DNA of 64,000 bases from Octopus vulgaris. Taxonomy: Eukaryota. The stretch spans positions 5,642,001 to 5,706,000 of the forward strand of contig OX597839.1 of assembly GCA_951406725.2 (NCBI GenBank). Reading direction: 5' to 3'. The notes under the pieces were generated by a model. The model did not search any database, was not told where the DNA came from, and saw only the letters and a list, made by a program, of their open reading frames with translations. Positions 37,297 through 37,521 of the stretch are shown here, piece by piece (position 1 is the first letter of the stretch; each line of letters opens with the position of its first letter). Both the position numbers and the translations under genes were made by a program.

Positions 37297-37521
37297 ATAT
37301 ATATATATATAATCAAAATAATCAACAAAGATATCCAGGGTAGTGTAGTGGATATCCTTGTTGATTATTTTGATTATAATCACCCCATTTGATTTATATG
37401 GATAATACCATACCAAATTCTGGTGCCTTTAAATTAAGTACCATATTCATGTGACCGCATGTGTACCGTTGGCGATTTTTTTTCCTCTGTCTTCCCTTCT
37501 CTGGATCTTTCCTTTTCCTAT

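Follow-up and report, generated by a model that had tools for sequence, protein, structure and literature searches.

Why does one arm of a short inverted insertion in the Octopus vulgaris genome end at the very base where a hammerhead ribozyme of its own family is predicted to cut? The insertion is a hairpin at positions 37308-37378 of the window, i.e., the whole 64,000-nucleotide stretch of contig OX597839.1 analyzed here. Its inverted structure is itself ordinary; the stop at +1, where +1 denotes the first base past the predicted hammerhead cut, is the question. The best reading of the evidence is that self-cleaved RNA, the cleavage itself being predicted, is on occasion the template for reverse transcriptase, which would then run off the cut end. 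Ends lying exactly at the cut are a minority class.

Arm 37308-37337 is complementary to arm 37349-37378 except for a sole mismatch at 37329/37357 (29 of 30 positions paired), and the two flank an 11-nt spacer, GGGTAGTGTAG, at 37338-37348. When 36851-37650 was shuffled 30 times by dinucleotide blocks, arms with no more than 1 mismatch reached 12 at the longest, which bears out the hairpin with ~29-bp arms and an 11-nt spacer described in a first-pass annotation of the window. That annotation had also equated the reverse complement of the spacer with the sequence 3' of the cut, and we reach the same result, 37338-37349 agreeing with 37738-37749 at 11 of 12 positions, the junction base included. 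On the top strand, the order is (TA)n, antisense +41 to +1, and then sense +12 onward. The left arm with the spacer (37308-37348, minus strand) corresponds to element positions +41 to +1 after the predicted cut, carries no tail, and would represent a cDNA that ran off the 5' end of a cleaved RNA; the spacer, on the same strand, is element +1 to +11, includes the 3' strand of hammerhead stem I, and is present in this arm only. The right arm (37349-37378, plus strand) covers +12 to +41 in the opposite orientation, is 29/30 identical to the left arm, and starts at +12/13. The T at 37349 fits two readings, position 0 in the left arm and +12 in the right, a 1-nt ambiguity, so that the earlier wording, that the arm ends within 1 nt of the predicted cut, is exact: the left arm ends at 0/+1, and the join is either blunt or made with 1 nt of homology. 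If the T belongs to the left arm, the enzyme would have copied 1 nt past the cut and uncut RNA would be needed, which counts against the cut-template reading. The ribozyme core is absent from both arms. A variant at 37322/37364 is common to both and absent from a second family copy in the window (the 4391 copy, described below), so a single source locus or a single transcript gave rise to both arms.

The hairpin is a head-to-head pair of 5'-truncated pLTR copies of a hammerhead-bearing Penelope-like element (PLE) family. In the accounts of PMC8557442 and PMC3846280, PLEs typically target microsatellites, occur as inverted and 5'-truncated copies, and carry a tail of 30-40 bp at one end. Here, the copies are head-to-head inverted and 5'-truncated, one arm bears a tail of ~30 nt, and (TA)n is found at the left end of the hairpin and at the family 3' ends, the right end abutting another element. 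The (TA)n tract at the left end (37293-37310) is the likely target site; its last 3-4 bases are common to the element (TATA), and a target-site duplication is not discernible within it. The commonest family 3' ends displayed for public contigs lie at 4398-4402 and are followed by (TA)n, which is where the left arm starts. The tail extension, on the right arm only (37379-37408, plus strand, far boundary approximate), begins beyond +41 with 37379-37383, which aligns with the 4391 copy; the far end of a loose-end consensus from public run X3, TATTATCC, matches 37400-37407, with the register fixed within one base. This 8-mer occurs once in the window, and the far boundary of the tail, which probably lies at ~37408, rests on that one match. 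The alignment and the loose-end match uphold the extra tail that had been noted on the right arm. Two other origins were considered and rejected: an assembly artefact is ruled out by the one base at which the arms differ and by the tail on one arm only, and a non-LTR retrozyme, which consists of tandem direct repeats with a hammerhead in each, is ruled out by the inverted orientation and the missing core.

The position of the cut follows from a family copy at 37710-37837 (minus strand), which reads through the hammerhead and carries its motif at 37826-37749, the predicted cut falling between 37749 and 37748. The motif comprises a CUGAAGA core, a 5-bp stem I, a long stem II, and GAAAC-GAUU-GUA, in the type I order CUGANGA ... 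GAAA ... NUH, and stems I and II were recovered by folding, with covariation. The family had also been placed at 4391-4521, and a second copy indeed spans 4389-4609 (minus strand), likewise reading through its hammerhead, with the core at 4515-4509, the cut between 4439 and 4438, and a private core mutation at 4514. Within 4439-4521, this copy has a covarying 6-bp stem I (AUGCAG/CUGCAU versus AUGUGG/CUACAC); the sequence of stem I differs between the two window copies and pairs in both. The CUGA(G/A)GA core is restored at 4514 in ~99% of the contig depth in all four public runs. A search of the whole window against Rfam at the gathering score gave 0 matches; it is the motif, the stems, and their covariation that mark 37826-37749 as a putative type I hammerhead with a conserved motif and predicted cleavage. 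No RNA run was listed for 37712-38400, a blank that counts neither way. The 4391 copy departs from the family at 4609 and runs on (4609-4617) with the 8 bases that would follow in the family, as given by contig loose ends, but reverse-complemented; this is perhaps a very short inverted arm.

The surroundings of the hairpin are a cluster of similar insertions, with an inverted pair (36836-37217), three hammerheads, and a broken ORF. A neighboring copy of a different family (37519-37659, plus strand) reads through a minimal hammerhead (37526-37552) and ends in (TA)n. The PLE ORF, 5'-truncated and broken (38954-40240, minus strand), encodes RT, a Cys-rich linker, and a GIY-YIG endonuclease, and appears Neptune-like by its linker; a PDB sequence search with the window RT piece returned nothing informative. 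We saw no ORF-bearing copy of the hairpin's own family. A hammerhead at 38492-38526 (minus strand) has the same CUGAAGA-UUGC...GCAU-GAAA frame as the 37749 motif; it lies ~430 nt downstream of the ORF and so ties the motif type, not the exact family, to a PLE. A further hammerhead at 38042-38123 (plus strand), with a 14-15-bp stem II and a folding z of -3.3, lies on the strand opposite to the adjoining 37710-37837 copy.

Much of this is familiar from endonuclease-bearing PLEs, for which PMC8557442 and PMC3846280 describe head-to-head truncated pLTR copies, a tail on one arm, a (TA)n target, and a hammerhead in the pLTR. The hairpin differs in that its arms are tiny and core-less and that one of them ends at the cut, whereas those accounts, in the portions concerned with insertion structure, link no junction to the cut; the function of the hammerhead in PLEs is described in PMC8557442 as unclear. 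The PLE hammerheads of PMC4209133, whose helix III is short or palindromic, resemble the 37749 motif in being of type I, with an unpaired base before stem II, a palindromic helix III, and low expected monomer activity, whereas stem II of the window motif is unusually long (~57 nt). According to the same account, the in vitro activity of PLE hammerheads is weak, and evidence that they cut in vivo was not available to its authors. Our own literature search, with most subscription papers outside its scope, found no study mapping PLE 5' junctions to the hammerhead cut.

We consider it rather probable, with considerable room for doubt, that the hairpin is a head-to-head PLE insertion of two short cDNAs, one of which was copied from hammerhead-cut RNA. 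The pLTR hammerhead, whose motif is present and whose cleavage is predicted, would cut some transcripts after GUA and leave a 5' end at +1. The PLE protein would nick an AT-rich target on both strands, and reverse transcription would start at two internal sites ~30 nt apart, near +41 and +71, with the tail lying between them; these two activities are documented in vitro for another PLE in the account of PMC11167929. The cDNA primed at +41 would run off the cleaved end at +1, and its 3' end would be joined, over no more than 1 nt of homology, to position +12 of a second cDNA, whose excess would be lost. Repair would then fix the hairpin, with the first 11 nt of the cleaved RNA as its spacer. 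This cut-RNA route would supply a few percent of 5' ends, most insertions being made from uncut RNA and reading through the ribozyme.

The experiments of PMC11167929, as far as that source presents them, bear on both halves of this scheme. Both strands of the target are cut and extended by the purified PLE protein, which starts at two internal sites that bound the tail. The element concerned, PAc (Poseidon, Anolis), is like the scheme proposed for the hairpin in having two start sites flanking the tail, which fits the arm ends near +41/+71, and in its predicted dimer. In the same source, ribozyme mutants left insertion unchanged, uncut RNA was the dominant substrate, and zero RNA-seq reads began or ended at the cut. 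Cleavage was found dispensable in vitro for PAc, whereas the window junctions, from a different PLE clade, suggest that cut RNA is sometimes used. A likeness also exists to the 5' ribozyme of R2 (PMC3774820, in its treatment of template ends), where the cleavage site fixes the template's 5' end and shows in genomic junctions joined by chance microhomology; the R2 ribozyme is, however, HDV-like and obligatory for full-length ends, whereas here a hammerhead lies inside the pLTR and marks a minority of ends.

The explanation that survives best beside cut-template copying is that the hairpin is an ordinary inverted 5'-truncated PLE pair, with truncation falling on the cut by chance or by stalling of RT at the folded ribozyme and with no cleavage at all. 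We judge this unlikely, although it deserves serious weight: inverted truncated copies with tails are standard in PLEs as described in PMC8557442 and PMC3846280, and other inversions of the window have their junctions off the cut (36836-37217, 44588-44627, and 51848-51883). Stalling at the base of stem I would, however, be expected to give an end at about +6/+7 and not at +1. The window also holds a second exact end, in another family. There, an upstream tandem copy (45322-45522, minus strand; 99.5% identical to 44756-44957) has its first base at precisely +1 relative to the 45007-44958 hammerhead, and the sequence preceding the 45522 start is unrelated, the +1 assignment being without ambiguity. 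Counted by eye, the 5' ends of hammerhead families in the window number 17-19, and 2 of ~18 lie at 0/+1, with a binomial P of 0.012 over a 215-nt range or 0.036 over a 120-nt range, the count and both values being post hoc.

Several window loci have features of their own. The stretch 44756-45522 (minus strand) is a partial tandem with a cut-to-cut unit of 565 nt, an arrangement expected if a transcript were cut at the first ribozyme and left uncut at the second. The inverted pair at 36836-37217 has 120-bp arms that are 98% identical and a decayed hammerhead at 37032-36976 (minus strand), and its sense arm restarts ~16-21 nt past the cut. At 44495-44690, an inverted PLE-type pair has as its junction a perfect 40-bp palindrome (44588-44627) upstream of the hammerhead at 44620-44649, and its left arm carries ~70 nt of additional 3' sequence. 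The 36-bp near-perfect palindrome at 51848-51883 has the appearance of an inversion junction within a related hammerhead's core. Finally, an inverted repeat at 57681-57901, with ~110-bp arms at 89% and no (TA)n flank, has a center that resembles the 3' half of a hammerhead (GAAA...GUA) and one arm starting at GUA; no hammerhead core was found at this possible near-cut case.

Public sequence data provided a wider view of the hairpin's own family. We aligned contigs of 4 of the 24 listed public runs (X1, X2, X3, and X5, from three studies) to 4389-4640 at 80% likeness, which gave 4453, 3688, 3800, and 2726 contigs, respectively, of which 528, 594, 506, and 428 were partial fits. Most copies of the family read through the ribozyme. 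Contig depth showed no step across 4438/4439 in the 4 runs; in X1, it was 1.40M at 4443-4451, upstream of the cut, versus 1.16M at 4425-4433, and the direction was the same in X2, X3, and X5. No position within 4389-4640 had many contig beginnings or ends in any of the 4 runs, none of the 7 listed joints (3 of them strand-changing) lay at the cut, and no loose end fell at 4438/4439 in the 24 rows displayed, the best 24 of 672. The window hairpin itself was not recovered as a joint, and the weakest loose-end rows displayed hold 9-19 contigs, so the blank at the cut limits only a large class; a class of cut-site ends amounting to a few percent would be compatible with the contig data.

For other families, a minimal-hammerhead pattern scan of metagenomes yielded at least 121 loci (L001-L121). 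This set is anchored on the core, so pairs in which both arms are core-less cannot appear in it, which biases it against the cut-site class. Of the 52 inverted partner arms among the matches listed in this core-anchored set, 38 end at -35 to -17 and 0 at 0/+1. A scan of viral contigs with three patterns gave 0 matches. Scanning with the post-cut sequence alone found 3 loci (L122-L124), all in one assembly (G001), and L122 has the geometry of the window hairpin. G001 is a 12-Mb bacterial genome bin in a prokaryote collection that contains many animal-DNA contigs and PLE ORFs; its matches to the hammerhead pattern number 69, versus 16 for the control. The RT and GIY-YIG frames of its PLE family are 33% and 31% identical, respectively, to the window ORF.

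The searches in G001 were independent of the core, and 40 of 94 candidates from the DNA search were scored, so the set is incomplete. Seventy arms were collected and 55 counted, after exclusion of 10 that run off the reference at -214, 3 with foreign upstream sequence common to L195, 1 split by an insert, 1 duplicate locus, and 1 at a contig end, and after restoration of 1 arm merged by de-duplication. Three of the 55 mapped ends lie at 0/+1, versus 31 at -46 to -17, and at least 39 are upstream of the cut. The region around the cut is not empty (three ends at +5, one at -2, and one at +2), which favors chance or stalling. The P value for the cut site is 0.037 against the 14 ends in -16 to +20, 0.006 against the 20 ends in -16 to +89, and 0.070 when G001 arms are pooled with the metagenome partner arms, the counting windows having been picked after the data were seen. 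Three other hammerhead families in G001 gave 12, 6, and 20 matches, 38 in total, of which 36 were assessable, 2 being at contig ends; copies identical over 60 nt upstream were collapsed and counted as read-through. None of the 36 ends at 0/+1, and nearly all read through, a result that would be compatible with a rate near 5% and adds no support.

Collectively, the enrichment of ends at the cut, by which the first-pass annotation proposed that the idea be judged, is borderline (P 0.006-0.07) in the approximate form in which we could count it. Exact ends occur in G001 (3/55) and in the window (2/~18), and they are missing from the metagenome partner arms (0/52 among the matches listed, in the biased set), the three other families (0/36), and the public contigs, the last three being nulls on which chance or stalling can draw. 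Against that explanation stand five exact ends, two in the window and three in G001, from three families. Two of the G001 cases (L122/L230 and L164) are inverted junctions in which the arm without a tail reaches the cut and its tailed partner stops at +16 or +47; L126, the third, is a plain insertion covering +1 to +118 and flanked by a perfect target duplication of 13 bp. The partner arm is core-less in each of the three inverted cases at the cut, that of the window included, whereas most arms read through. Inverted pairs whose furthest end lies at the cut number 2 of 15 in G001. On balance, cleavage, which is predicted, probably produced the exact 0/+1 ends, if copying from a cut template with fold-back is taken in.

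Fold-back, which we regard as improbable, would likewise start from a cut template: one cDNA would run off at +1, prime itself at +12, and be copied back, one arm later being trimmed of its tail. The 29/30 identity of the arms and their common variant, absent from the 4391 copy, speak for it, and palindromes at PLE inverted junctions are interpreted as self-priming in the account of PMC3846280. Just 1 bp of pairing would be available, however, and fold-back of a target-primed left arm would copy (TA)n and not the tail of the right arm. Of the 31 scorable metagenome pairs (52 pairs among the matches listed), 27 consist of one tailed and one untailed arm, and among these matches the arm reaching further 5' is the tailed one in 12 cases and the untailed one in 15, so that either arm can reach further. 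This pairing and this symmetry fit two cDNAs from two target ends better than fold-back. That the arm was joined to a copy primed from the opposite side, as the first-pass annotation had it, accords with the tail asymmetry of these pairs and with the recurrence of the geometry in L122/L230 and L164. Simple twin priming of the L1 type on one RNA is ruled out by the overlap of the arms in the template, +12 to +41 being present twice.

It is very improbable that ligation of the 5'-OH cleavage end to a piece of antisense RNA gave a chimera that was then reverse-transcribed whole: although ligation of ribozyme products is a proposed route to retrozyme circles in the account of PMC7761336, an antisense transcript ending at +12 would be required, and the tailed/untailed pairing and the plain L126 insertion would be left unexplained. 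The view that self-cleavage generally defines the template 5' end in the hairpin's family, which the first-pass annotation took the junction to support, scarcely merits credence, for although two window cases (the 37308-37348 left arm and 45522) point that way, both intact window copies (37749 and 4439) and most others read through, contig depth does not drop on the upstream side of the cut relative to the downstream side in 4 runs and shows no pile-up, and in G001, ends upstream of the cut far outnumber those at it.

Returning to two cDNAs, one of them from cut RNA, we tentatively extend this reading, though inclining slightly against the extension: PLE insertions may keep a base-exact germ-line record of hammerhead cleavage, in which a few percent derive from RNA that had cleaved itself, cut templates underlie both arms wherever such an insertion is an inverted pair, and the in vivo activity of the family's ribozyme can be gauged from how high its +1 peak is. 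If true, the genome itself would testify to cutting of transposition-competent RNA by PLE hammerheads, and the suggestion would be that these abort copying, leaving core-less stubs, rather than being needed for template processing. Most PLE clades carry hammerheads, and +1 junctions would make in vivo cutting countable, family by family, in any good assembly.

The usual 5' ends of the minimal-hammerhead family (L001-L121, G001) concentrate at 17-46 nt before the cut. Their distribution has an edge near -35: among the matches listed, six metagenome partner arms end at -35 and none at -36 to -97. In the window, the copies at 13750 and 50248 begin at about -33 and -36, respectively. One candidate for what usually sets the template end in this family is a site of transcription start or processing immediately ahead of stem I.
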